Shown piece by piece: positions 13,832-30,817 of a stretch of 64,000 bases of DNA. Origin of the DNA: Parcubacteria group bacterium M10-OD1-1. Lineage in GTDB: Bacteria > Patescibacteriota > Minisyncoccia > Moranbacterales > UBA2206. The stretch's first letter is position 1. Every line of letters begins with the position of its first letter. The translations under genes were made by a program, and so were the position numbers. The notes under the pieces are model-generated. The model had not been told where the DNA came from and did not search any database. It saw only the letters and a list, made by a program, of their open reading frames with translations. The DNA is taken from assembly GCA_003056145.1 (NCBI GenBank), contig LSNL01000001.1, positions 9,351 through 73,350 on the forward strand, in the 5' to 3' direction.

Positions 13832-15847
13832 CTATGGAATCAACTTTTTATATGTTCTTGGGAAAGGCACTGCATCTTGAACCATGTCCATATCTAGTAT
13901 TTTCGCAATCAATCGATCAATACCTATACAAAAACCACCGTGTGGAACAGCTCCATCTACTATAGAAATATAAAACTCATAATCACGAGCATTTATTCCC
14001 GAAAGTTGCATCGACTTTCTTATTTTATCACCATCGGTTTGTCGTATTGCACCACTTACAAGTTCCCACCCACCAACAATCACATCAAAAGTCTCTGTCA
14101 GCCCTTTAGATTTATTTTTAGTATAAAATTTTTTAATAGTATCGGGGTAATCTTTTACGACAAAAATATCGTTACCATATTGTTTTTTTACTAGCTGTCC
14201 AAGATTTGATTCGCTCACAAGCCCAAGATCATCACCAAGAGTCACTGGACTACCATTTTTTCGCAACATATCGACTGCCTCGTGATATGTTAATATCGGT
14301 ATGTTGTCTACTTCAGGAATAACTAAATAGCGTTGTAAATCAAAAGTTTCTACAATTTTGTCATTAGATTTTTTTATTATTGAGCAGGCTAGGAAATAAA
14401 GCTCTTTTAGATTTTTTGGATTATTGAATTCAATATCAAGCCCGATAGATTCTTGTAAATGCCTATATGACTCACTTTCTTCTTTTCTCCAAAATGGACC
14501 TATCTCATAAACTTTATCCATCCCTGAGGCTACGAGTATTTGTTTATATATTTGGTTAGATTGACGCAAAAAAGCAGTGGTTCCATTAATCCAGTCCACA
14601 TTGATTGTTCCTCCCTTGTCGATCTTAGGTGGATCGGTTGAAATTCCCACAATATGAGGAGTTGTGACTTCTATAAAATTTTCATTATGTAAATATTCTC
14701 TTATGCTATTTATCAACTCTCCTCTTTGTTTTATTAAATTAATTTTCTTTTCATCAAGTTTTAAAGTGTGATTCTTTTGTTTGTAAATATACTTTTTCCC
14801 AATATTTTTATTTATCGTATTTATAACAGTATTTAATTTGCTCTGTATGACAACTCGCACTTTACTAATCTCTTTTTTACGAAGTTGAGTGTTTTGTTCG
14901 GCTATTTTTGATAATTCACTAATATCAACTATAGCATTTAGTTTTTCATTCAAAATCGGAGGTGAAACAAGATCTACAAAATAGATTTTTGAAGTGTCTG
15001 GTATTGTCTTTATTAATCTCTCGACAATTTTTTTAGTATTCTCATTATTATCTAGCGCCACCACAACAGAGCTAATATTATTGGAAATTATAAGTTTATC
15101 AAGAGATAAATAATGCACAGATATTTCATCGAGATTCTCCTTTTTAATATCAATAGGAGTACGATTTAAAATATATACGGGCAAAAATAGTTCACGATTT
15201 AATATTTTAGCAATAAGTTTTCCGGATTTTCCGTAACCAACCAAAAGAACACTCTGCTTTTCCTGGGTATTTTGCGCAATAAGCTCGCATGCAATTCTTT
15301 CAAGTGATATATTCCCATTAAAAAGACTTGTTCTTAATTTGCAATCCGCAACAATCTCAGTTAGCCATTTTGCAATAGTCTTAAGAACTTCAATGCCACC
15401 ATGGATTCCTGAAAGCAACCCATTATTTATCTGCTTTGAAACTTGTGAGTCCCCAATTGTGACACTATGTAGCCCAACAACACACTCTGCTAAAAATTTA
15501 AGAGCGTCAATATTATGGGACATCTTAATATCTCTTGTCATATCTAAAATTCCCTCTTTGGAGTTTTTATCCCATGTCGCCAACAATCTGTCATGGATAT
15601 AATCAAATGACAAATCATTCATATACGAAGCAACCACTATAACCGCATTGCATTTTTTTATTATCGCTAAAGATTCAATTTCAATACCTAAATCTTTCTT
15701 AAATTTTTCTAAAGCATCCAAGTCACTCTCAAGATTTGCTGAATTCAAATTAGACAACGCCCTGTTATCAAGTCTTTGATAGTTAAGTGTCGCACAGATT
15801 ATTTTAGTATGTAGTTGCATATTTTTATTTATTATTTCTATATACAT
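13832..15847 (-). CDS. Fusion protein with an N-terminal glutamyl-tRNA reductase (HemA)-like domain (putative Cys-Asn, NAD(P) Rossmann) and a C-terminal class IIb aaRS (AspRS/AsnRS-type) catalytic core without an anticodon-binding domain
   Basis: The N-terminal half carries KKCNAVIVVA, GLHSVTIGDSQVSKQIN, VLLVGYGKSGKLIAKIL and FVDLVSPPILNEKLNAIVDISEL. The C-terminal half carries motif 1 FIEVTTPHI, LRQSNQIYKQIL, motif 2 FWRKEESESYRHLQESIGLDIEF, and motif 3 GGFCIGIDRL. The start could instead be the internal Met at 15820. Confidence 0.7.
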   Translation of the reverse strand: MYIEIINKNMQLHTKIICATLNYQRLDNRALSNLNSANLESDLDALEKFKKDLGIEIESLAIIKKCNAVIVVASYMNDLSFDYIHDRLLATWDKNSKEGILDMTRDIKMSHNIDALKFLAECVVGLHSVTIGDSQVSKQINNGLLSGIHGGIEVLKTIAKWLTEIVADCKLRTSLFNGNISLERIACELIAQNTQEKQSVLLVGYGKSGKLIAKILNRELFLPVYILNRTPIDIKKENLDEISVHYLSLDKLIISNNISSVVVALDNNENTKKIVERLIKTIPDTSKIYFVDLVSPPILNEKLNAIVDISELSKIAEQNTQLRKKEISKVRVVIQSKLNTVINTINKNIGKKYIYKQKNHTLKLDEKKINLIKQRGELINSIREYLHNENFIEVTTPHIVGISTDPPKIDKGGTINVDWINGTTAFLRQSNQIYKQILVASGMDKVYEIGPFWRKEESESYRHLQESIGLDIEFNNPKNLKELYFLACSIIKKSNDKIVETFDLQRYLVIPEVDNIPILTYHEAVDMLRKNGSPVTLGDDLGLVSESNLGQLVKKQYGNDIFVVKDYPDTIKKFYTKNKSKGLTETFDVIVGGWELVSGAIRQTDGDKIRKSMQLSGINARDYEFYISIVDGAVPHGGFCIGIDRLIAKILDMDMVQDAVPFPRTYKKLIP

Positions 15848-16580
15848 TCTCTACCGTTGCCTGATGTAATGGCGTTACGGTAATTTCATTTATTTGTACA
15901 TGCTCTGGTGATTCTATGGAAAACTTTATAATTGTAGCGATGTCCTCGGCTGAAAGAGGTTTAATGCCAAAATATGCTTCTTTTGCCTTTTCTTTATCCC
16001 CATCAAAACGCGTAATGCTAAAATTTGTTTCAACTAATCCTGGTTGAATATTCGTTATTCTAATTTTATGCTCAATTACATCTTTGCGAAGACCGTCTGA
16101 AATAGATTTTACTGCAGCTTTAGTTGCAGAATAGACTATACCTTTTGCATAAGTGTTAATACCTGCTATTGAACCCATATTAACAATATGTCCATTATTT
16201 TTATCTTTCATATATTTCAAAGCAAACTTTGTAACATAAAGTAGACCTGCAATATTAGTATTTAACATTGTGTCCCAATCTGAAATAAGGCTTCCTTCAA
16301 AACTATCTAGTCCAAGAGCGAGACCTGCGGAATTAATTAGAACCTCTGGATATATTTTTTTCTCGTCAAGCATACCAAACATTTTTTTCACTTGTTCGTT
16401 GTCTGTAACGTCAACTCCAACTACCATTACTTCTTCATCGGAAACTCCAAGATCTTTTTTTACATCGTGTAACTTGTCTAAATTTCTAGAACAAAGCACT
16501 AATCTATTGCCAGCTTGTAGCTTGTAAGCACATGCTAAACCTATCCCACTACTCGCACCTGTTATAAGTATTGTTTTCAT
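15825..16580 (-). CDS. NADP-dependent short-chain dehydrogenase, YdfG-like (3-hydroxy acid / serine dehydrogenase, malonic semialdehyde reductase family)
   Basis: It has TGASSGIG, NSAGLALG and the catalytic YSATKAA, and shows block-by-block similarity to E. coli YdfG. Its start ATG overlaps the aspS stop (ATGA). Confidence 0.85.
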   Translation of the reverse strand: MKTILITGASSGIGLACAYKLQAGNRLVLCSRNLDKLHDVKKDLGVSDEEVMVVGVDVTDNEQVKKMFGMLDEKKIYPEVLINSAGLALGLDSFEGSLISDWDTMLNTNIAGLLYVTKFALKYMKDKNNGHIVNMGSIAGINTYAKGIVYSATKAAVKSISDGLRKDVIEHKIRITNIQPGLVETNFSITRFDGDKEKAKEAYFGIKPLSAEDIATIIKFSIESPEHVQINEITVTPLHQATVENVYRNNK

Positions 16581-17998
16581 GTATTAATTTTTGTTATTTT
16601 AACTCCCAATTCTTTCTTCTGCTTATCTGAAATTTGTGCAGGTGCTCCAAGTATTAAATCTTTTCCATCTCCTGTTTTAGCGAAAGGTATCACTTCTCTA
16701 ATACTTAATTCATTTTCAAGAATCATGATAAGACGATCAAAACCCCATGCAATACCTCCATGTGGTGGAGCACCATACGAAAAAGCCTCAAGTATATGAC
16801 CAAAATTCTTTTCAATTTTATCATCTGTATACCCCATAATTTCAAAGGTTTTTTTTAAAGCTTCTGATTTGTGATTTCGTATGCTACCACCACCAATTTC
16901 AAAACCATTGAGTATAATATCATATTGTGTTGTTAAAATATTGCCTATGTTTTCTTTATTCATAAACATTTTTAGGTGTTCATCTTTTGGTTTCGAAAAA
17001 GGATTATGCGTAAATGTCCACTCTCCCGTCCCATCTACATTTTCATCTTCTGTTTTTTCAAACATAGGAAAATCTACTACCCACAAAAACGCCAGAAGAT
17101 TTGGGTTATTCTTATCTTCACGAATGTCTGGTCTATCATTGCCGTATTTTTCCATTGCTCCTGCATAAGTTATTCTCGGAAATGGTATCTGTTGAATTTG
17201 TTTTTCTGGATACTGTTTCTTGATAAGCTCAATTAATAACTGTTCGTTGATTTGCATAATATCCTCTTCATCGACAAAAGCGAGTTCCATATCTAGCTGA
17301 GTAAATTCAGCTTGTCTATCGCCACGAGCATCTTCATCACGCATACATCGTGCGAACTGAAAATATTTTTCAAAACCAGCAGTCATTAAGAGTTGCTTGT
17401 ATTGTTGTGGTGATTGAGGAAGTGCATAGAAATCTCCTTTCCATATTCTATGAGGAACAATAAATGAGCGAGACCCTTCTGGAGTTGGCACTGAAAGTAT
17501 AGGAGTTTCAATTTCAATGAAATTTTGCTCACTTAAATAATTACGCACAAAATTTTGTACCTTAAATCTATTTTTAATATTTTTCTGCATACGAGATGTC
17601 CGCAAATCAAGATAACGATACTTAAGTCGTGTACTTTCATTCACCTCCCTAGTGTCACCATCGATAGGAAACGGCAAAACTTCAGCAAAATTAAGCACAA
17701 TGATTTTTAAAATCTCAAGTTCAATATCACCATTTTGCGTGTTTGGTTTTTTGTTCCTTTCGGGGCGTTCATTTACTTTTCCAGTTACCTCAACTACGCA
17801 CTCTTCACGAATATTCTTCCCAACATCCATTGCTCCACTTTTTGGTAAAATAACCCCTTGTACCACTCCCGTTGTATCTCGGAAATCAAGAAAAACCATC
17901 TTTCCTTGATCGCGTCTAACCTTAACCCACCCTTTAATTACAACTTGCTTACCTATTTTAGATGAAAGTTTATTTATGTATATTCTATTTATTTTCAT
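16577..17998 (-). CDS. aspS: Aspartyl-tRNA synthetase, bacterial-type sequence but compact (GAD insertion domain absent)
   Basis: It has an OB anticodon-binding N-terminus, LPQSPQQYKQLLM, motif 2 CMRDEDARGDRQAEFTQLDMELAF, and motif 3 PPHGGIAWGFDRL. It is 473 aa, against ~590 aa for GAD-containing AspRS. Confidence 0.9.
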   Translation of the reverse strand: MKINRIYINKLSSKIGKQVVIKGWVKVRRDQGKMVFLDFRDTTGVVQGVILPKSGAMDVGKNIREECVVEVTGKVNERPERNKKPNTQNGDIELEILKIIVLNFAEVLPFPIDGDTREVNESTRLKYRYLDLRTSRMQKNIKNRFKVQNFVRNYLSEQNFIEIETPILSVPTPEGSRSFIVPHRIWKGDFYALPQSPQQYKQLLMTAGFEKYFQFARCMRDEDARGDRQAEFTQLDMELAFVDEEDIMQINEQLLIELIKKQYPEKQIQQIPFPRITYAGAMEKYGNDRPDIREDKNNPNLLAFLWVVDFPMFEKTEDENVDGTGEWTFTHNPFSKPKDEHLKMFMNKENIGNILTTQYDIILNGFEIGGGSIRNHKSEALKKTFEIMGYTDDKIEKNFGHILEAFSYGAPPHGGIAWGFDRLIMILENELSIREVIPFAKTGDGKDLILGAPAQISDKQKKELGVKITKINT

Positions 17999-18112
17999 AA
18001 AGATTATTTCAAAAGTTTATCCGTGTTGTTTCTATGTGATTACAATTTCCACATTGTTTATTTTATTAAAAGTTTCAATGTTTATTCAAAGCACTTAGTG
18101 CTAGCACAATGT

Positions 18113-18202
18113 TGGCGGAGAGTGAGGGATTCGAACCCTCGAAGCCGGTTAAAACTTGCCACCTTTCCAAGGTGGTGCACTAGACCACTATGCGAACTCT
18201 CC
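18113..18202 (-). tRNA. tRNA-Ser (anticodon GGA), 90 nt with a long variable arm and encoded CCA
   Basis: The manual fold gives a 7-bp acceptor stem (GGAGAGT/ACTCTCC), a D-arm, an anticodon stem CCACC/GGTGG with loop TTGGAAA, a 17-nt variable arm, T-loop TTCGAAT, discriminator G, and CCA. Confidence 0.85.
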
Positions 18203-25006: not shown

Positions 25007-25459
25007 ATGTTTACTTTCTCTAAATACGCTATTTTCATTATTCCCCTAATTGTTTTAATTTCTGCTCGGATTTTAAAATTTATTATTTTTTATTTCAAAC
25101 ACAATGATGATTTAAAATATGCTATTCGTCACTCTATGACTTATGGACATATGCCGAGTGTTCATTCCGCCTTAATGGTTTCCTTAGTCACTTCTATTGG
25201 TTATTATTCTGGTTTAACTTCTGGTGCTTTTTCCATTGCTTTGATTATGGCAATTCTAATTATTGATGATGCCACTAGATTAAGAGTTTATATGGGTGAC
25301 CATAGTCGGTACATCAATATGCTAATTGGAAAAATTCAAGCTAACCAGATAGATTATCCACATTTAAAAGAAAGAATGGGACATAAAATTAGCGAAGCTA
25401 TCGCTGGAGGAATCTTAGGATTAGTGCTTACTCTAATTCTAATAAGATTTTTTGGATAA
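25007..25459 (+). CDS. Divergent PAP2/acid-phosphatase-related membrane protein (DUF212, YuiD-like)
   Basis: GHMPSVHSALMVSL and a multi-TM topology support the call. Its 3' end overlaps the convergent murE-like gene by ~30 nt. Confidence 0.55.
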   Translation: MFTFSKYAIFIIPLIVLISARILKFIIFYFKHNDDLKYAIRHSMTYGHMPSVHSALMVSLVTSIGYYSGLTSGAFSIALIMAILIIDDATRLRVYMGDHSRYINMLIGKIQANQIDYPHLKERMGHKISEAIAGGILGLVLTLILIRFFG

Positions 25460-26672
25460 TTTTTTTATCGTTCCAAGTAATTCTTTTTTTTCTAATTGCC
25501 ATTGTTTCTTCCGCACCTTTTCCTGTTACAATTACAAAATCACCAGACCTTGCAATTTGTAGAGCTTTTTTAATTGCCTCACGACGATCAACTATTTTCC
25601 AAAAATTTATATTTTCTTGTTTATTTTTAATTCCTCGTGCTACTTCGTTAATAATTTGCCAAGGATCTTCTCCATAAGGATCTTCATTGGTTACAAATAC
25701 ATAGTCAGTGCTATTAGCGACGATTTCTCCCATAATCGGTCGTTTTCCGCGATCACGCTCCCCGCAAGAACCAAAGACTGCAATAACTTTCTTTTTTTGA
25801 ATATTAAGTTTTTTAATAAGTTCATATAATTTTTCCAAAGAATCTGGAGTTACAGCGTAATCAATGATAATATTTAGTCCTTTGTTATTTGCTACACTCT
25901 CCATTCTTCCTGGCACACCCTTAATTTTCTCCAAAGCCTTAGCACAAATTTTCAAATTAATATTTTCCAGGGTTCCAACACTAATAGCGGCTAGAGCATT
26001 TTCAATATTAAAGTTACCCATTAAATTTAAGCTAATCTCTTGATTCTTAATTATAAAAGAAGATTTATCAATACCCGTTTCAATATTTTTGGCCAAAATA
26101 TCCGCTTGATTATTTTTCAAACTATATGTAATTATTTTTTTATCTGTATCTTGCAAAAATTCTTCTGGTTTTTTCATATCTAAGTTTACTACAATATTTT
26201 TTGCTTTTTTGAATAATAATTTCTTAGCCTGACGATATTTCTCCATTGTCTTATGATAATCTAAATGCTCGCGCGTAACATTAGTAATAATCGCAGTATC
26301 ATATTTCACTCCCCAAACTCGATACTGATCCAATGAATGGGAAGATGTTTCTAAAACGACATAATCATGATGAGAAAGAACCGCTTCAGAAATAAATTTT
26401 TGAACAGTAAAAGCAGAAAGGGTTGTAAATTTAGTTTTATTTATTTTTTCTATCCCGTTAAATCTAAAATTAATTGTAGAAGTCATAGCTACTTTATTTC
26501 CCGCTTCTTCTAAAATTTTAGTTATCATTTGAACTGTTGTTGTTTTTCCGTTTGTCCCTGTCACTCCTATCACTTTTATTTTCCGACTGGGATATCCATA
26601 CCAAAGATTTGCCAAGATAGCTTGGACTAAGTGATAATAATTTTTCAATTTTTGCGGAATAATTTTTTTCAT
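25428..26672 (-). CDS. murE: Mur ligase, MurE-like (UDP-MurNAc-L-Ala-D-Glu: diamino acid ligase), lacking most of the N-terminal domain 1
   Basis: The evidence is GVTGTNGKTTT, ETSSHSLDQYRV...TNVTREHLDYH, and the C-terminal DYAVTPDSL (cf. MurE DYAHTPDAL). At 414 aa it is shorter than the ~490 aa typical for MurE. Confidence 0.65.
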   Translation of the reverse strand: MKKIIPQKLKNYYHLVQAILANLWYGYPSRKIKVIGVTGTNGKTTTVQMITKILEEAGNKVAMTSTINFRFNGIEKINKTKFTTLSAFTVQKFISEAVLSHHDYVVLETSSHSLDQYRVWGVKYDTAIITNVTREHLDYHKTMEKYRQAKKLLFKKAKNIVVNLDMKKPEEFLQDTDKKIITYSLKNNQADILAKNIETGIDKSSFIIKNQEISLNLMGNFNIENALAAISVGTLENINLKICAKALEKIKGVPGRMESVANNKGLNIIIDYAVTPDSLEKLYELIKKLNIQKKKVIAVFGSCGERDRGKRPIMGEIVANSTDYVFVTNEDPYGEDPWQIINEVARGIKNKQENINFWKIVDRREAIKKALQIARSGDFVIVTGKGAEETMAIRKKRITWNDKKIIQKILLELE

Positions 26673-26729
26673 ATTTTTATTATATCCTAAAATTAAATAA
26701 ATATAAAAGGTTTAATTCTTTAATAAGAA

Positions 26730-27434
26730 TTAAACCTTTTGACTTCTTTCTATTTTTTTATTGCTGTTAATTCTTAAGACCTCTTCTGCTTCCTGACAAA
26801 TAAGAGAAAAATCAGTTAATGCTTCCCTTATACTTTTCTCGTATTTTAGTCCAGTTAAATTTCTCTTTTGAATAATTTCCAAAAAAGGAAAAGCCTTTTC
26901 TGTTAAATAAGACTCTATTCTTTTTTTAGAGGAAGAAAGGTTTTTGGCATAAAATTCATCTAACATACCTATAAATCCATCAATCATGTCACAAATCTTC
27001 GACATAATTAAAAAATCTGTTTGAGCAATTTTTTTAAAATAACTAATTTTAGACTCACCCTTCATTCTAGTAAACATTTTGACATAAATGGGAATTAACT
27101 GTCCGTAATGTTCTTTGATGCTAATTAGGGTTATCAGACCTACTTCTTCAGGAACATCGTGGAGTAAAATACTTGCCCCTTCTTGATCTTCATATGCAAG
27201 TTTAGCATTATAAACGGTATAATAGATAAAGGCTCTCAACACCCGTTTTGGATGTTTTCTGTATTCGCTTCCATCTCTCCGCATAGTTTGGTGATAAGTA
27301 TCACAGCATTTTTCCGCCTTTAACGTTGCTACACCTTGCATTTTTTTAGCAAAGGATGTTATTCTAATCTGTTGCCAAAGTATACTTTTTTTTCTCACAG
27401 AATCAGCTATGAGCAATAACGGTTTTTCTCTCAT
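26730..27434 (-). CDS. HD-domain protein, RelA/SpoT-type (p)ppGpp hydrolase-like (small alarmone hydrolase-like)
   Basis: YHQTMRRDGSEYRKHPKRV and LLHDVPEE resemble the Rel/SpoT HD motifs (H..R.sGePY..HP and LLHDv.EDT). Confidence 0.45.
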   Translation of the reverse strand: MREKPLLLIADSVRKKSILWQQIRITSFAKKMQGVATLKAEKCCDTYHQTMRRDGSEYRKHPKRVLRAFIYYTVYNAKLAYEDQEGASILLHDVPEEVGLITLISIKEHYGQLIPIYVKMFTRMKGESKISYFKKIAQTDFLIMSKICDMIDGFIGMLDEFYAKNLSSSKKRIESYLTEKAFPFLEIIQKRNLTGLKYEKSIREALTDFSLICQEAEEVLRINSNKKIERSQKV

Positions 27435-27646
27435 AACTTTTTTCTCCTTATAAAAAATTTTAATGAACTAAAATTAACACCAAAGACTAGTATAAGTTAT
27501 TTTTGATTAAAAATCAATCCCTCTGCATTAAATTGTTTAAAATAACATCAGAGAGTAATAAAGGTTTTAAGCTAATCAGTTTTTTAATTTTCTAGAAACA
27601 AGACAAAAAATTTAAGTTATTTATTTTTAATAGTAAAATTTATACT

Positions 27647-28645
27647 TTAGAATTTTTTATTTTTAAGACTTCTTATGTTTTGAATCGTTCTATATAAATA
27701 ATATCGCATAGGATTAATAATAATATCATAACTCCCAGGAAATTTAACTGGTTTAGTCTTTGGTGAAAAACCTGATTTAAACCGTGTAATACCTCTCCAT
27801 GAATTTTTGCCGCTCTCAATACTAACCCCGCCAAAATCATATCTCATCATCCCTTTTTTTTGAGCTATTCTCATTTGTTGCCATTGCAAAAGATACGATG
27901 CCATCACATTCTTATATTTATCATCTGAAGCTCCATGTAAATAAGTAGCCATTTCCCCAAAAAAAATAACCAAATTAACAGCTGTTACTTGACCTTGATA
28001 TTGAGCAACAAATATATTTAATTTATCCCTTGGAATGGTAGCTATCATTTTTTGATAATATTCTTTAGGATGAGAAACAATTCCTTGCCGTTTAGCAGTA
28101 ATTTGAGCTAATCGCCAGAACTCTTCTAAATATTGTTGCTTATTTTTTTCCTGAGCTACTATGATTTTCACATTTTTTTTCCCCGCCAATCGAATATTGT
28201 ACCGAGTTTTACTTTTCATTTGAGCTAATAATTCTTCTTCTGTTTTCAAAATATCCACCACTAAAACTTCTCTTGGTTGCATATCATGCGGAGCCTTTTG
28301 AATTTTATAATTTATATTTTTTTCAATCTCCACTAACTGATTTTTTGTTACTGGCTCAATTCTAATCCAGCCAGCCTTTTCTTTTTTGGCTAACTTTATT
28401 ATTTTTTTCAATCTCTCTTTGTTATTTTCCAAACTAGATTTCTTTAAAATCGGTCCACGAGGAATATAAAAATATTTTCCCACAATCGGTAATTGATGCT
28501 TAATTATGTTTGCCCAAAAACTTTCTCCCTCTAGATGATACGTTTTTCTTCCTACTGCTTCTTGAAAATTTTTCCATTCATTTGATTGCAAAAAACCACC
28601 ATCAGGAGAATTCTGTTGAATAAAACTATTTTTATTATTTTCCAT
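27647..28645 (-). CDS. FemAB-family aminoacyl-tRNA-dependent peptidoglycan interpeptide-bridge transferase (FemX-like)
   Basis: The N-terminal FLQSNEW-type start is typical of the FemABX family, and the ~330-aa length fits FemX/MurM. Confidence 0.65.
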   Translation of the reverse strand: MENNKNSFIQQNSPDGGFLQSNEWKNFQEAVGRKTYHLEGESFWANIIKHQLPIVGKYFYIPRGPILKKSSLENNKERLKKIIKLAKKEKAGWIRIEPVTKNQLVEIEKNINYKIQKAPHDMQPREVLVVDILKTEEELLAQMKSKTRYNIRLAGKKNVKIIVAQEKNKQQYLEEFWRLAQITAKRQGIVSHPKEYYQKMIATIPRDKLNIFVAQYQGQVTAVNLVIFFGEMATYLHGASDDKYKNVMASYLLQWQQMRIAQKKGMMRYDFGGVSIESGKNSWRGITRFKSGFSPKTKPVKFPGSYDIIINPMRYYLYRTIQNIRSLKNKKF

Positions 28646-28669
28646 AAAAAATTATTCTAACTTAAAGAG

Positions 28670-28740
28670 AGCAAGATACGAGACTCGAACTCGTCTTTTC
28701 TGCTTGGGAAGCAGATGTACTACCCCTGTACTAATCTTGC
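28670..28740 (-). tRNA. tRNA-Gly (anticodon CCC), 71 nt, no encoded CCA
   Basis: The manual fold gives acceptor GCAAGAT/ATCTTGC, D-arm GTAC-AGGGGTA-GTAC, anticodon stem TCTGC/GCAGA with loop TTCCCAA, T-arm ACGAG-TTCGAGT-CTCGT, and discriminator U. Confidence 0.85.
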
Positions 28741-28774
28741 TAATCTAAAATTAACACTTTTTTAGTTTTTTAAT

Positions 28775-29347
28775 TTATTTTTTACCTAAGTTTTTTAAAG
28801 CTTCTTTTACTCTTGCACCTACTTCTTTTATTTTTGGAGAAACCATTTTCAAAGCCTCCCTAGCTTCAGTAGTAGAATAACCAATACTCAGAAGAGCTTC
28901 TACGGCATCACTATCAATAGTTGCTTCTTCCTTTTCTTCTGTAGTCATAGTAGCTACTTTATTTTGTAATTCTAAAATCACTCTTTCGGCAGTTTTCTTT
29001 CCAACGCCAGAAACTTTAGTTAGAATTGCTGGATCATTATTTAGAATAGCCGTTTTAATAGTCTTCGGCGTTGCAATAGACAAAATACTCATCCCTGCCT
29101 TTGGACCAATCCCAGAAATAGAAATTAAAAGTTCAAAAATTTCTAATTCTTCTCGACTTAAAAAACCGTATAATGCTAGCGTATCTTCTCTGACATAAGT
29201 ATAGATAAAAAAACTCACCTCTTTTAATTGAGAAGTTTTTCCAGCAGTATAAGCACTCAAACCAACTTTATAACCAACCCCATTAACATCTATAACAGCA
29301 TAGCTATCCTGCATATATTCAATTTTTCCTGTTAACTTAGCAATCAT
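28775..29347 (-). CDS. ruvA: Holliday junction DNA helicase subunit RuvA
   Basis: The N-terminal OB fold (MIAKLTGKI...VIDVNGVGYKV) and the HhH domain (GIGPKAGMSIL, VSGVGKKTAERVILEL) support the call. Confidence 0.85.
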   Translation of the reverse strand: MIAKLTGKIEYMQDSYAVIDVNGVGYKVGLSAYTAGKTSQLKEVSFFIYTYVREDTLALYGFLSREELEIFELLISISGIGPKAGMSILSIATPKTIKTAILNNDPAILTKVSGVGKKTAERVILELQNKVATMTTEEKEEATIDSDAVEALLSIGYSTTEAREALKMVSPKIKEVGARVKEALKNLGKK

Positions 29348-29499
29348 ATTTTAATTCTATCATTTATCTCCCTCCTTGCCAAAAATAATATAATATGCTA
29401 AAAATAATTAGTCTTAGTTCCAAAACTATTTAGATTATAAATTTTAACTTATCAAGTTAATTTTTGCATTATTGCATTATTAACTTGTCTCAAAAGAAC

Positions 29500-29769
29500 G
29501 TGCCAATTAAAAACTCAGCTAAAAAATATATGCGAGTAACCGCTCGTAAAACCGAAAAAAATAAACGAATTAAGGGACAATTTCGTTCTGCGATTAAAGC
29601 CACTAAAACTGCTTTAACAAAAGGAACTATTGATAAAGCTCAGGAATATCTTAAAAAATCGATTAAGGCTTTAGATAAAGCAGCTCAAAAAAAAGTTTTG
29701 TCTAAAAATACTGTGGCTCGCTATAAATCTAAACTTAATAAAGCCGTAAAAACTGATAGTCAAAAATAA
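29500..29769 (+). CDS. rpsT: 30S ribosomal protein S20
   Basis: After the GTG start it reads PIKNSAKKYMRVTARKTEKNKRIKGQFRSAIKA (cf. MANIKSAKKR...). The ORF-track start at 29464 is probably too early. Confidence 0.75.
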   Translation: MPIKNSAKKYMRVTARKTEKNKRIKGQFRSAIKATKTALTKGTIDKAQEYLKKSIKALDKAAQKKVLSKNTVARYKSKLNKAVKTDSQK

Positions 29770-29792
29770 TTTTCTTATTTTTTGTCAAAATA

Positions 29793-29818
29793 AAAAACCA
29801 CTATTTTAGTGGTTTTTT
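29793..29818. terminator. Bidirectional hairpin terminator AAAAACCACTA-TTT-TAGTGGTTTTTT between convergent rpsT and holA
   Basis: It is a perfect stem with A/T runs on both sides. Confidence 0.6.
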
Positions 29819-29845
29819 ATTGTTATCTTTTTAGTAAAAGAATAT

Positions 29846-30817
29846 TTATAATTCTACAATAAATTTAACTAGAGCTAATTTTATATCTACTTCTCCAGTT
29901 TTGATAGTTATATCTAACTGACTTAACTCTTGATAAATCTTTTTTAGTTGAGAAAAAGAAAAATTTTTAATTTGGCTAAGTGTTTTTTTTATTACAAAAG
30001 GATGCAATTTAGCCACTTTAGCAATTTCGTATTCGGTTAGTTGGTTATTAATTGCTAAATCTGATACTTTAAGCATATTTCTAAATTGATAGACTAACAT
30101 CGACAAAAGATAAAAAGGATCTTCCCCCTTGGCTAGATGTTCATAAATCAAATTCAAAGCTTCTTTTTTATTATTAGCTCCAATAGCATCAATAGCTTGG
30201 AAAATGCTACTTTTCAAATTATTTTTAACTAAATTTCTTATTTCTTTTAAGGTGATAATTTCTCCCGCTGAAAAATTAACTAATTTTTGTAACTCTGAAA
30301 AAATAAGATACTTATTATTTTGACAAACACTTAATAGTTCTTTCAAAGCTTCTTTTTCAATTTTAGCCTTTGGATCAATCTTAAATAATATCTGTAAAAT
30401 TGATTGTTCTAACTTGAAACCAACTAAGTTATCAAACTGTTGTTTTTTAGCTTTCTCTTTTAAAAATTTAAACAGAGCGTTATTTTTTCTAGGCATTCCC
30501 ACTTCCCAAAAAATTATGATTCTATCTTTATCATTCAATAGCTCGTTAGAATTTTTTTTCAAAAATTCTAATATAGTTTTTTCCTCTAAACTTAAAGCAG
30601 AAGAAAATAAATTTTTAATTATTATTAAACGCTTGGGCGCTAATAGATTAGCTGTTCTTAAAGTAGCTATAATTTTTGAAATAATATTTTTTTCTTCTTC
30701 TATATCAAAAACTGACAAGCCAGATCCTGACTTGTCAGAAGATAAAAATTTCTTTTTTAATTCTAATAATTTCCTACTCGATTGAAAATAGTCTTCACCA
30801 TATAAAAAGATTATCAT
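29846..30817 (-). CDS. holA: DNA polymerase III delta subunit
   Basis: The N-terminus MIIFLYGEDYF is typical of delta, and the length and helical C-terminal domain fit. Confidence 0.65.
   Translation of the reverse strand: MIIFLYGEDYFQSSRKLLELKKKFLSSDKSGSGLSVFDIEEEKNIISKIIATLRTANLLAPKRLIIIKNLFSSALSLEEKTILEFLKKNSNELLNDKDRIIIFWEVGMPRKNNALFKFLKEKAKKQQFDNLVGFKLEQSILQILFKIDPKAKIEKEALKELLSVCQNNKYLIFSELQKLVNFSAGEIITLKEIRNLVKNNLKSSIFQAIDAIGANNKKEALNLIYEHLAKGEDPFYLLSMLVYQFRNMLKVSDLAINNQLTEYEIAKVAKLHPFVIKKTLSQIKNFSFSQLKKIYQELSQLDITIKTGEVDIKLALVKFIVEL

Follow-up and report, generated by a model that had tools for sequence, protein, structure and literature searches.

tRNA genes serve as integration sites of genomic islands, and they can be co-transcribed with a protein gene, as in the thrU-tyrU-glyT-thrT-tufB operon of E. 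coli. Glycine tRNAs also meet enzymes of the cell wall. Staphylococci employ the non-proteogenic (NP) tRNAs NP1-NP3 together with the transferases FmhB, FemA and FemB, and these tRNAs are marked by TGC or TGT replacing TTC in the T-loop, by an altered D-loop and by an AU/UA/AU T-stem (PMC7826273). For a Staphylococcus NP tRNA with this AU/UA/AU stem, the published free energy of EF-Tu binding (dG) is -9.5 kcal/mol (PMC3239215 table). Another member of the Fem family, the coiled-coil-less FemX of Weissella viridescens (FemX_Wv), reads only the acceptor arm of its tRNA (PMC7826273).

Here we analysed a 64,000-nucleotide stretch of DNA from Parcubacteria group bacterium M10-OD1-1 (the window), in which a tRNA-Gly(CCC) gene stands directly before a gene for a Fem-type transferase. 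The original prediction took this pair for a dedicated, physically linked cross-bridge module. If true, that reading would give the first physically linked tRNA/Fem-enzyme pair for wall synthesis in ultra-small Patescibacteria. We conclude that the gene is very probably an ordinary, single-copy elongator tRNA-Gly(CCC) in an inherited, recombination-prone gene order and not part of a dedicated wall module. The main value of the case would then be a clean negative, an ordinary decoding tRNA at an inherited but unstable position, and the lesson that tRNA neighbourhoods need controls for copy number, EF-Tu rules and synteny.

The tRNA-Gly(CCC) gene and its EF-Tu determinants

ARAGORN finds two tRNAs in the window. 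One of them is tRNA-Gly(CCC), which it calls at 28669-28740 on the minus strand. Rfam RF00005 matches 28670-28740 with 63.5 bits (E 1e-12; gathering score 29), and together with an arm-by-arm reading this gives a gene of 71 nt up to the discriminator U73. The cloverleaf is canonical with four arms, its standard fold being that returned by ARAGORN. The T-stem consists of A49-U65, C50-G64 and G51-C63, of which the first and the last had been read correctly in the original prediction. Both loops are normal, with TTCGAGT in the T-loop and AGGGGTA, including G18G19, in the D-loop. The tail runs U73-C and then TCTTT. The predicted lack of an encoded CCA is thus real, yet it is the rule in this genome (31 of 41 tRNAs) and therefore not distinctive.

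The E. coli GlyRS identity set comprises U73, G1:C72, C2:G71, G3:C70, C35 and C36. All of these are present in our tRNA except at position 3:70, where both bases have changed in a compensated manner to A:U; 13 relatives and the genome's two other Gly tRNAs have G:C there. A49 is lineage-specific as well, since the same 13 relatives carry G49. These two changes, the only oddities of the tRNA, could hint at an altered use. Beside the tRNA, an Rfam scan of 26000-30000 with E up to 1 revealed no other credible structured RNA. Nor did we find a repeat of the tRNA 3' end within the window, and there is hence no sign of an integrated element here.

The genome (866 kb in 7 contigs, 30% GC, 97% complete) holds 41 tRNA genes, with one each for Gly CCC, GCC and UCC. 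No second, proteinogenic tRNA-Gly(CCC) stands beside the first in the genome-wide tRNA list of this 97%-complete assembly. GGG makes up 10.9% of Gly codons, or 6.7 per 1000, in 509 long ORFs. tRNAs with C34 are retained for Thr, Glu, Lys, Gln, Ser, Arg and Leu as well. GGG can possibly also be read by a tRNA-Gly(UCC) with C32 (Figure 1 legend, PMC7826273).

We computed EF-Tu affinities with Schrader and Uhlenbeck's averaged ddG values (PMC3239215), using the base value of -10.1 kcal/mol implied by their Table 3. The calculated dG is about -10.8 kcal/mol for our tRNA-Gly(CCC) (AU/CG/GC) and -11.2 kcal/mol for the Gly-CCC tRNAs of relatives (GU/CG/GC). The class mean for Gly CCC is -11.0 kcal/mol (sd 0.34), which places our tRNA within 0.6 sd, at a value that is usual for tRNA-Gly in bacteria. 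Its 49:65, 50:64 and 51:63 pairs are the same as those of the genome's tRNA-Gly(GCC), the sole reader of GGU and GGC, which must therefore serve translation. The Gly-CCC tRNAs of relatives, whether linked to femX or not, share one scaffold, G49-U65/C50-G64/G51-C63, which is the pattern of the staphylococcal proteogenic P1. A search of our tRNA for the staphylococcal NP hallmarks came out negative, as the T-loop is TTC, the T-stem is not weak and G18G19 is kept. The idea of a dedicated cross-bridge module is not supported by these data: this is the only Gly-CCC gene of the genome, and the Schrader-Uhlenbeck table rates its EF-Tu determinants as normal. The finding is essentially what the original prediction itself had named as speaking against it, a unique tRNA-Gly(CCC) with canonical determinants.

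FemX, MurE and the organisation of the locus

The gene behind the tRNA, femX (27647-28645, minus strand), encodes a FemAB-family transferase of 332 aa (P0001) in the short, FemX_Wv-like form. It matches the Pfam FemAB family PF02388 with an E value of 1e-44 and 153.4 bits against a cut-off of 24. ARAGORN, Rfam and Pfam PF02388 thus agree with the original prediction that a tRNA-Gly(CCC) lies 24 nt upstream of a Fem-type gene on the same strand. Among PDB sequences, FemX matches S. aureus FmhB (6snr) and Weissella FemX (1ne9, 4ii9), and homologues are present in 39 of 41 related genomes. When our FemX is combined with 11 relatives into a profile (alignment A1), the alignment to FemX_Wv runs from end to end, over residues 19-329. 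The Phe-Lys pair at the catalytic position of FemX_Wv, F304-K305, corresponds to F289 and K290 here, which do not vary across 12 relatives. The coiled-coil insertion of the FemA/FmhB type, some 60-70 aa between the domains, is absent, and the alignment skips residues of about 232-302 of the FmhB chain in 6snr. Against the NCBIfam alanyltransferase equivalog NF047883, FemX scores 81 bits. As this is far under the cut-off of 500, the protein is a member of the family and not an equivalog. Judged from sequence, the protein is a true transferase of the FemX_Wv-like kind, and its gene is coupled to murE. Because FemX_Wv reads the acceptor arm only (PMC7826273), an enzyme of this type gives no reason to expect an anticodon-specific partnership.

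The original prediction had also placed a murE-like ligase nearby, past an intervening gene. This holds: murE lies on the same strand at 25428-26672, beyond an ORF at 26730-27434 on the minus strand, and synteny identifies it as the conserved downstream partner of femX. It encodes a short MurE-family ligase of 414 aa (TIGR01085, E 3e-122) without the N-terminal domain, the alignment starting at profile position 69, and with EDPY where DAP-type enzymes have DNPR. The intervening ORF of 234 aa had been labelled an HD-domain gene. That label, drawn from motifs picked out by eye, found no confirmation, as the ORF has no match in Pfam (E up to 1) or among PDB sequences (E up to 10). tblastn finds homologues of it only in three loci (L032, L088, L102), and it is missing from most relatives. 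Conserved femX-murE adjacency is the one observation that speaks for the predicted wall role of FemX. A near-universal FemX, fixed beside a short MurE without the DAP motif across Parcubacteria-like genomes, predicts a branched wall. To our knowledge, nobody has analysed such a wall in these organisms.

Upstream, the tRNA begins 34 nt past the stop codon of ruvA (28775-29347, minus strand; TIGR00084, E 3e-56), a neighbour that is conserved by synteny. Downstream, an AT-rich spacer (28646-28669, minus strand) separates it from the femX ATG by 24 nt when counted from the discriminator base, or by 23 nt when counted from the end called by ARAGORN. Inspection of this spacer and a promoter/terminator scan revealed no Shine-Dalgarno-like run, no terminator and no called promoter. 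The same scan called neither promoter nor terminator anywhere between ruvA, tRNA and femX. Of the promoter-like sites in the region, the best (TTGGCA-17-TAGAAT with a TG) lies upstream of ruvA at 29354-29382 on the minus strand and matches the consensus at 10 of 12 positions. Promoter-like sites are not more frequent here than in shuffled sequence (23 versus 20.2), and the site is a weak candidate for the start of a ruvA-tRNA-femX transcript. Since in this genome, as in one relative (G023), no space remains outside the tRNA gene for femX to have a promoter of its own, co-transcription of ruvA, tRNA and femX is likely here, with tRNA processing releasing the products. A search of sequencing runs listed the stretch in DNA contigs of vent and other metagenomes only, and in no RNA data set.

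An unstable tRNA at a conserved junction

The comparison covered 41 genomes, 40 relatives plus our own (G000), with about 10 kb fetched on each side of femX for synteny. The gene block fpg-DUF3048-holA-ruvA-femX-murE-DUF212-lemA-M48 extends across the order. Nearly all of 39 relatives carry its ruvA-femX-murE core, as do most of 80 wider Patescibacteria loci. tRNA-Gly(CCC) follows ruvA in 11 genomes (G000, G002, G004, G009, G010, G012, G013, G017, G018, G023, G024), all of which belong to the window's family. In most relatives ruvA and femX are joined directly, by 10-40 nt and without a tRNA. The gap between tRNA and femX is 1-130 nt in four of the 11 genomes (1 nt in G023, 24 nt in our genome, about 80 nt in G013 and about 65 nt, measured to the likely ATG, in G009). 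It amounts to 0.67-9.7 kb in five others (0.67 kb in G012, 1.2 kb in G018, 1.5 kb in G010, 1.8 kb in G004 and 9.7 kb in G024). In 8 of the 11 genomes no more than 165 nt separate the tRNA from ruvA, but only in 4 do no more than 130 nt separate it from femX. Between tRNA and femX of G009 stand a terminator-like hairpin and a TATAAT, which point to separate transcription in this relative. Since adjacency of tRNA and femX recurs in relatives, it is not an accident of assembly. As the original prediction requires, femX does neighbour a tRNA in some relatives, but the pattern is patchy, with interruptions of 0.7-9.7 kb and a tRNA that is missing in 17 of 41 genomes.

That last count required a sensitive search. 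BLAST with the 72-nt tRNA reached only 11 of the 41 genomes, and real copies in G013, G018 and G010 escaped it. We replaced it with an anticodon-arm and T-loop pattern and a covariance model derived from 14 Gly-CCC genes. By pattern and model together, tRNA-Gly(CCC) went undetected in 17 of the 41 genomes, where the best matches of the model were Gly-GCC, Gly-UCC and then scores at the level of tRNA-Trp. femX is kept in 15 of these 17. In at least ten relatives tRNA-Gly(CCC) is found at other places, often in tRNA clusters: it follows Pro-Gly(UCC) in G006, adjoins Gly(GCC) in G034 and adjoins Gln, Pro or Thr tRNAs in G014, G020 and G027.

What separates tRNA and femX differs between genomes. 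The insertion in G024 opens with an ORF that overlaps the 3' end of the tRNA and encodes a large serine recombinase, and it also holds an EcoRI-type methylase and a GmrSD/HNH nuclease. A Fic protein lies between tRNA and femX in G004 and a MerR/HTH protein in G018, and partial tRNA copies flank the tRNA-Gly(CCC) gene in G012 and G013. From these comparisons, the ruvA-femX junction is a recombination hot spot centred on the tRNA. In a tree of block proteins, the trait of a tRNA after ruvA is scattered and needs at least 4 changes. We considered a single origin of the position and do not claim one on such a tree; the tRNA may have been gained repeatedly at one site.

At the junction the anticodon is always CCC, and among the 30 closest loci none has a different tRNA within 1.5 kb of femX. 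G018 and G010 carry a UCC-type tRNA body with a CCC anticodon at the same site. Strict retention of the anticodon, even on such a body, is what selection for decoding would produce. Two further tRNAs served as controls. In at least 13 relatives tRNA-Ser(GGA), which has no link to the chemistry of its neighbours, holds its place near the block. In another lineage, five loci have tRNA-Arg(CCG) 0.1-2.2 kb downstream of femX, although this tRNA is not a likely donor for a Fem enzyme.

The reading that we prefer combines these elements. tRNA-Gly(CCC) would decode GGG in protein synthesis and would owe its place in the short ruvA-femX spacer to a block that Moranbacteria share with many other Patescibacteria. 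Within one family, the position after ruvA seems to be old. In some relatives, inserted genes, among them the serine-recombinase island, have parted the tRNA from femX, and in others the tRNA has shifted into tRNA clusters or disappeared. In our own genome a common transcript of ruvA, tRNA and femX is probable, from which RNase P and a nuclease acting at the 3' end would excise the tRNA before CCA is added. Only a very short leader would then remain on the femX mRNA. Whatever aminoacyl-tRNA FemX uses, nothing marks tRNA-Gly(CCC) as reserved for it.

Competing explanations and known systems

A dual use of the tRNA could also account for its place: FemX would add glycine and prefer Gly-tRNA(CCC), and a tRNA inside the femX transcript would tie the supply of the donor to the enzyme. 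Several features fit. CCC is the Gly isoacceptor that translation needs least in a genome of 30% GC, as GGG is a minor codon that a tRNA-Gly(UCC) with C32 may also read (PMC7826273). The tRNA shares the strand of femX across a 24-nt spacer without a terminator, and in G023 the femX ATG comes 1 nt past it. Eleven family members keep a CCC-anticodon tRNA at the junction, two of them on a different body, and a MurE without the DAP-type DNPR motif is compatible with a branched wall. We nevertheless consider this reading unlikely, because many relatives retain femX where the tRNA is lacking, and because the pair is often split. Fifteen relatives have femX but no Gly-CCC gene, and at least ten have the tRNA elsewhere, often among other tRNAs. 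Insertions of 0.7-9.7 kb and a terminator-like hairpin divide the pair in relatives, and the tRNA stays close to ruvA (8 of 11) more than to femX (only 4 of 11). For coiled-coil-less enzymes of the FemX_Wv type, which read the acceptor arm only, the anticodon would not matter (PMC7826273). We give somewhat less credence still to the fuller version, in which, within one Moranbacteria family, FemX adds a Gly branch to non-DAP peptidoglycan mainly from a dispensable, dual-use and co-expressed Gly-tRNA(CCC).

The tRNA might instead matter as a cis-acting processing element, whose excision parts the ruvA and femX messages, makes a near-leaderless femX mRNA and so sets femX expression. The leader is 24 nt long without a Shine-Dalgarno run here and 1 nt long in G023, and neither promoter nor terminator was called from ruvA to femX, as this reading would have it. 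It is nonetheless improbable, as most relatives do with ruvA and femX joined directly, 10-40 nt apart and without any tRNA, and G009 has terminator-like and -10-like elements of its own. Least credible of all, and in our judgement barely worth retaining, is a dedicated non-proteogenic tRNA that escapes EF-Tu like staphylococcal NP1-3 and serves only cell-wall synthesis. It can point to A49-U65, which is the 49:65 pair of the staphylococcal NP tRNAs too, and to a 3:70 pair that differs from the family consensus. Against it stand the sole Gly-CCC gene of the genome, a calculated EF-Tu affinity that is normal and equal to that of the indispensable GCC isoacceptor, the TTC of the T-loop together with G18G19, and the regular use of GGG codons. 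The CCC anticodon, moreover, is strictly conserved even on a replaced body, as decoding would select. This reading is already largely refuted. An ordinary elongator tRNA in an inherited and unstable position remains our preferred explanation, and it can be set against the known systems.

Compared with NP1-NP3 and FmhB/FemA/FemB of staphylococci, the likeness is that of a Gly tRNA and a Fem-family transferase within one organism (PMC7826273), and the A-U pair at 49:65 is shared with the NP tRNAs (PMC7826273). The staphylococcal NP tRNAs, however, are extra copies with a UCC anticodon (PMC7826273), whereas here there is a single CCC gene. They combine a weak T-stem (-9.5) with a TGC/TGT T-loop, in contrast to the normal T-stem (about -10.8) and TTC T-loop of our tRNA. 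Unlike the staphylococcal Fem enzymes, the enzyme here is without the coiled coil, the presumed reader of the D and T arms.

FemX of Weissella viridescens, a UDP-MurNAc-pentapeptide:L-Ala transferase (1ne9, 4ii9), is closer. The two proteins are alike in length (332 versus 335 aa), neither has the coiled coil, and the F-K pair at F304-K305 is kept. They differ in a His where FemX_Wv carries R211, and our femX, unlike the FemX_Wv gene, is fixed beside murE and ruvA.

The junction also recalls islands integrated at tRNA genes, given the recombinase ORF that overlaps the tRNA 3' end in G024 with restriction-modification genes after it, and the partial copies in G012 and G013; our own window differs in holding neither an island nor a tRNA-derived repeat. 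With respect to the E. coli thrU-tyrU-glyT-thrT-tufB operon, our arrangement is distinct in that the tRNA stands between two unrelated protein genes. As in that operon, a tRNA lies directly upstream of a same-strand ORF with no room for a terminator, and maturation would release both.

Variation at the ruvA-femX junction

Among the relatives of the window's genome, the tRNA gene between ruvA and femX, the FemAB-family transferase gene, varies in its body, its spacing and its surroundings. In two genomes, G018 (locus L034:12211-12282) and G010 (L061:8443-8515), the junction tRNA carries a CCC anticodon on a tRNA-Gly(UCC)-type body, and its anticodon arm matches the CCC-type gene of G013 base for base. 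Judged from these sequences, the junction tRNA of both genomes looks like the product of gene conversion among glycine tRNA genes in which the anticodon was kept.

The spacing is shortest in G023 (L046:6503-6580), where a single nucleotide, the C following the discriminator base, separates the tRNA from the femX start codon, so that tRNA 3' processing would yield an essentially leaderless femX mRNA. Partial tRNA-like copies detected with the Gly-CCC covariance model (24-28 bits) directly adjoin the intact tRNA in G013 (L048:10965-11146) and G012 (L037:11638-11683), and in G013 a copy of the tRNA 3'-half stops 9 nt ahead of the femX ATG. In G024, tRNA-Gly(CCC) and femX are separated by a 9.7-kb island (L187:412-10230) in which the ORF of a large serine recombinase overlaps the 3' end of the tRNA. 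The island also encodes an adenine methylase of the EcoRI type and a GmrSD/HNH nuclease, and it holds several ORFs that have no family assignment.

Absence and possible duplication of tRNA-Gly(CCC)

Of the 41 genomes compared, 17 had no tRNA-Gly(CCC) detectable by pattern search or covariance model: nine of these are G001, G003, G005, G008, G011, G016, G019, G021 and G022, and the other eight are G026, G028-G030, G032, G033, G039 and G040. All 17 have kept the Pro-Gly(UCC) and Leu-Val-Phe-(Met)-Gly(GCC) clusters. G015 has two matches to a Gly-CCC-like anticodon arm plus T-loop, 5.3 kb apart (C3:32718-32743 and C3:38034-38059), which by sequence may represent a duplicated gene; ARAGORN confirmed only the second (locus L075).

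Other tRNAs near the block and in the window

Five loci of another Patescibacteria lineage (L121, L142, L144, L147 and L154) have a tRNA-Arg(CCG) downstream of femX, at a distance of 0.1-2.2 kb; in L154 it stands between femX and murE. Elsewhere in the window, tRNA-Ser(GGA) leads a gene run on the minus strand (13832-18202). Next come a class II synthetase of the Asp/Asn/Lys type and a short-chain dehydrogenase, and then a 671-aa protein in which GluTR-like and shikimate-DH-like domains are fused to a class II synthetase core. At least 13 relatives have kept this tRNA in the same position.

The Patescibacteria-type ruvA-femX-murE block was also encountered in several public MAGs titled Bdellovibrionales, Gammaproteobacteria, Bathyarchaeia or Pirellulales (loci L077, L081, L091, L092, L120 and L132, among others), which are probably mislabelled bins.

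Genes downstream of femX

Between femX and murE lies a 234-aa ORF (window 26730-27434, minus strand), in which HP...LLHDVPEE motifs are recognisable only by eye. It matched nothing in Pfam at E up to 1 or among PDB sequences at E up to 10, and a counterpart at the same site occurs in few relatives only (L032, L088 and L102). At 414 aa, the MurE-family ligase beyond it (25428-26672, minus strand) is a short form; its alignment to MurE profiles starts only at about position 70-90, and the N-terminal domain is therefore missing. The MurE proteins of relatives are similarly short by tblastn (405-445 aa). In the window's MurE, the DNPR of DAP-adding enzymes is replaced by EDPY.
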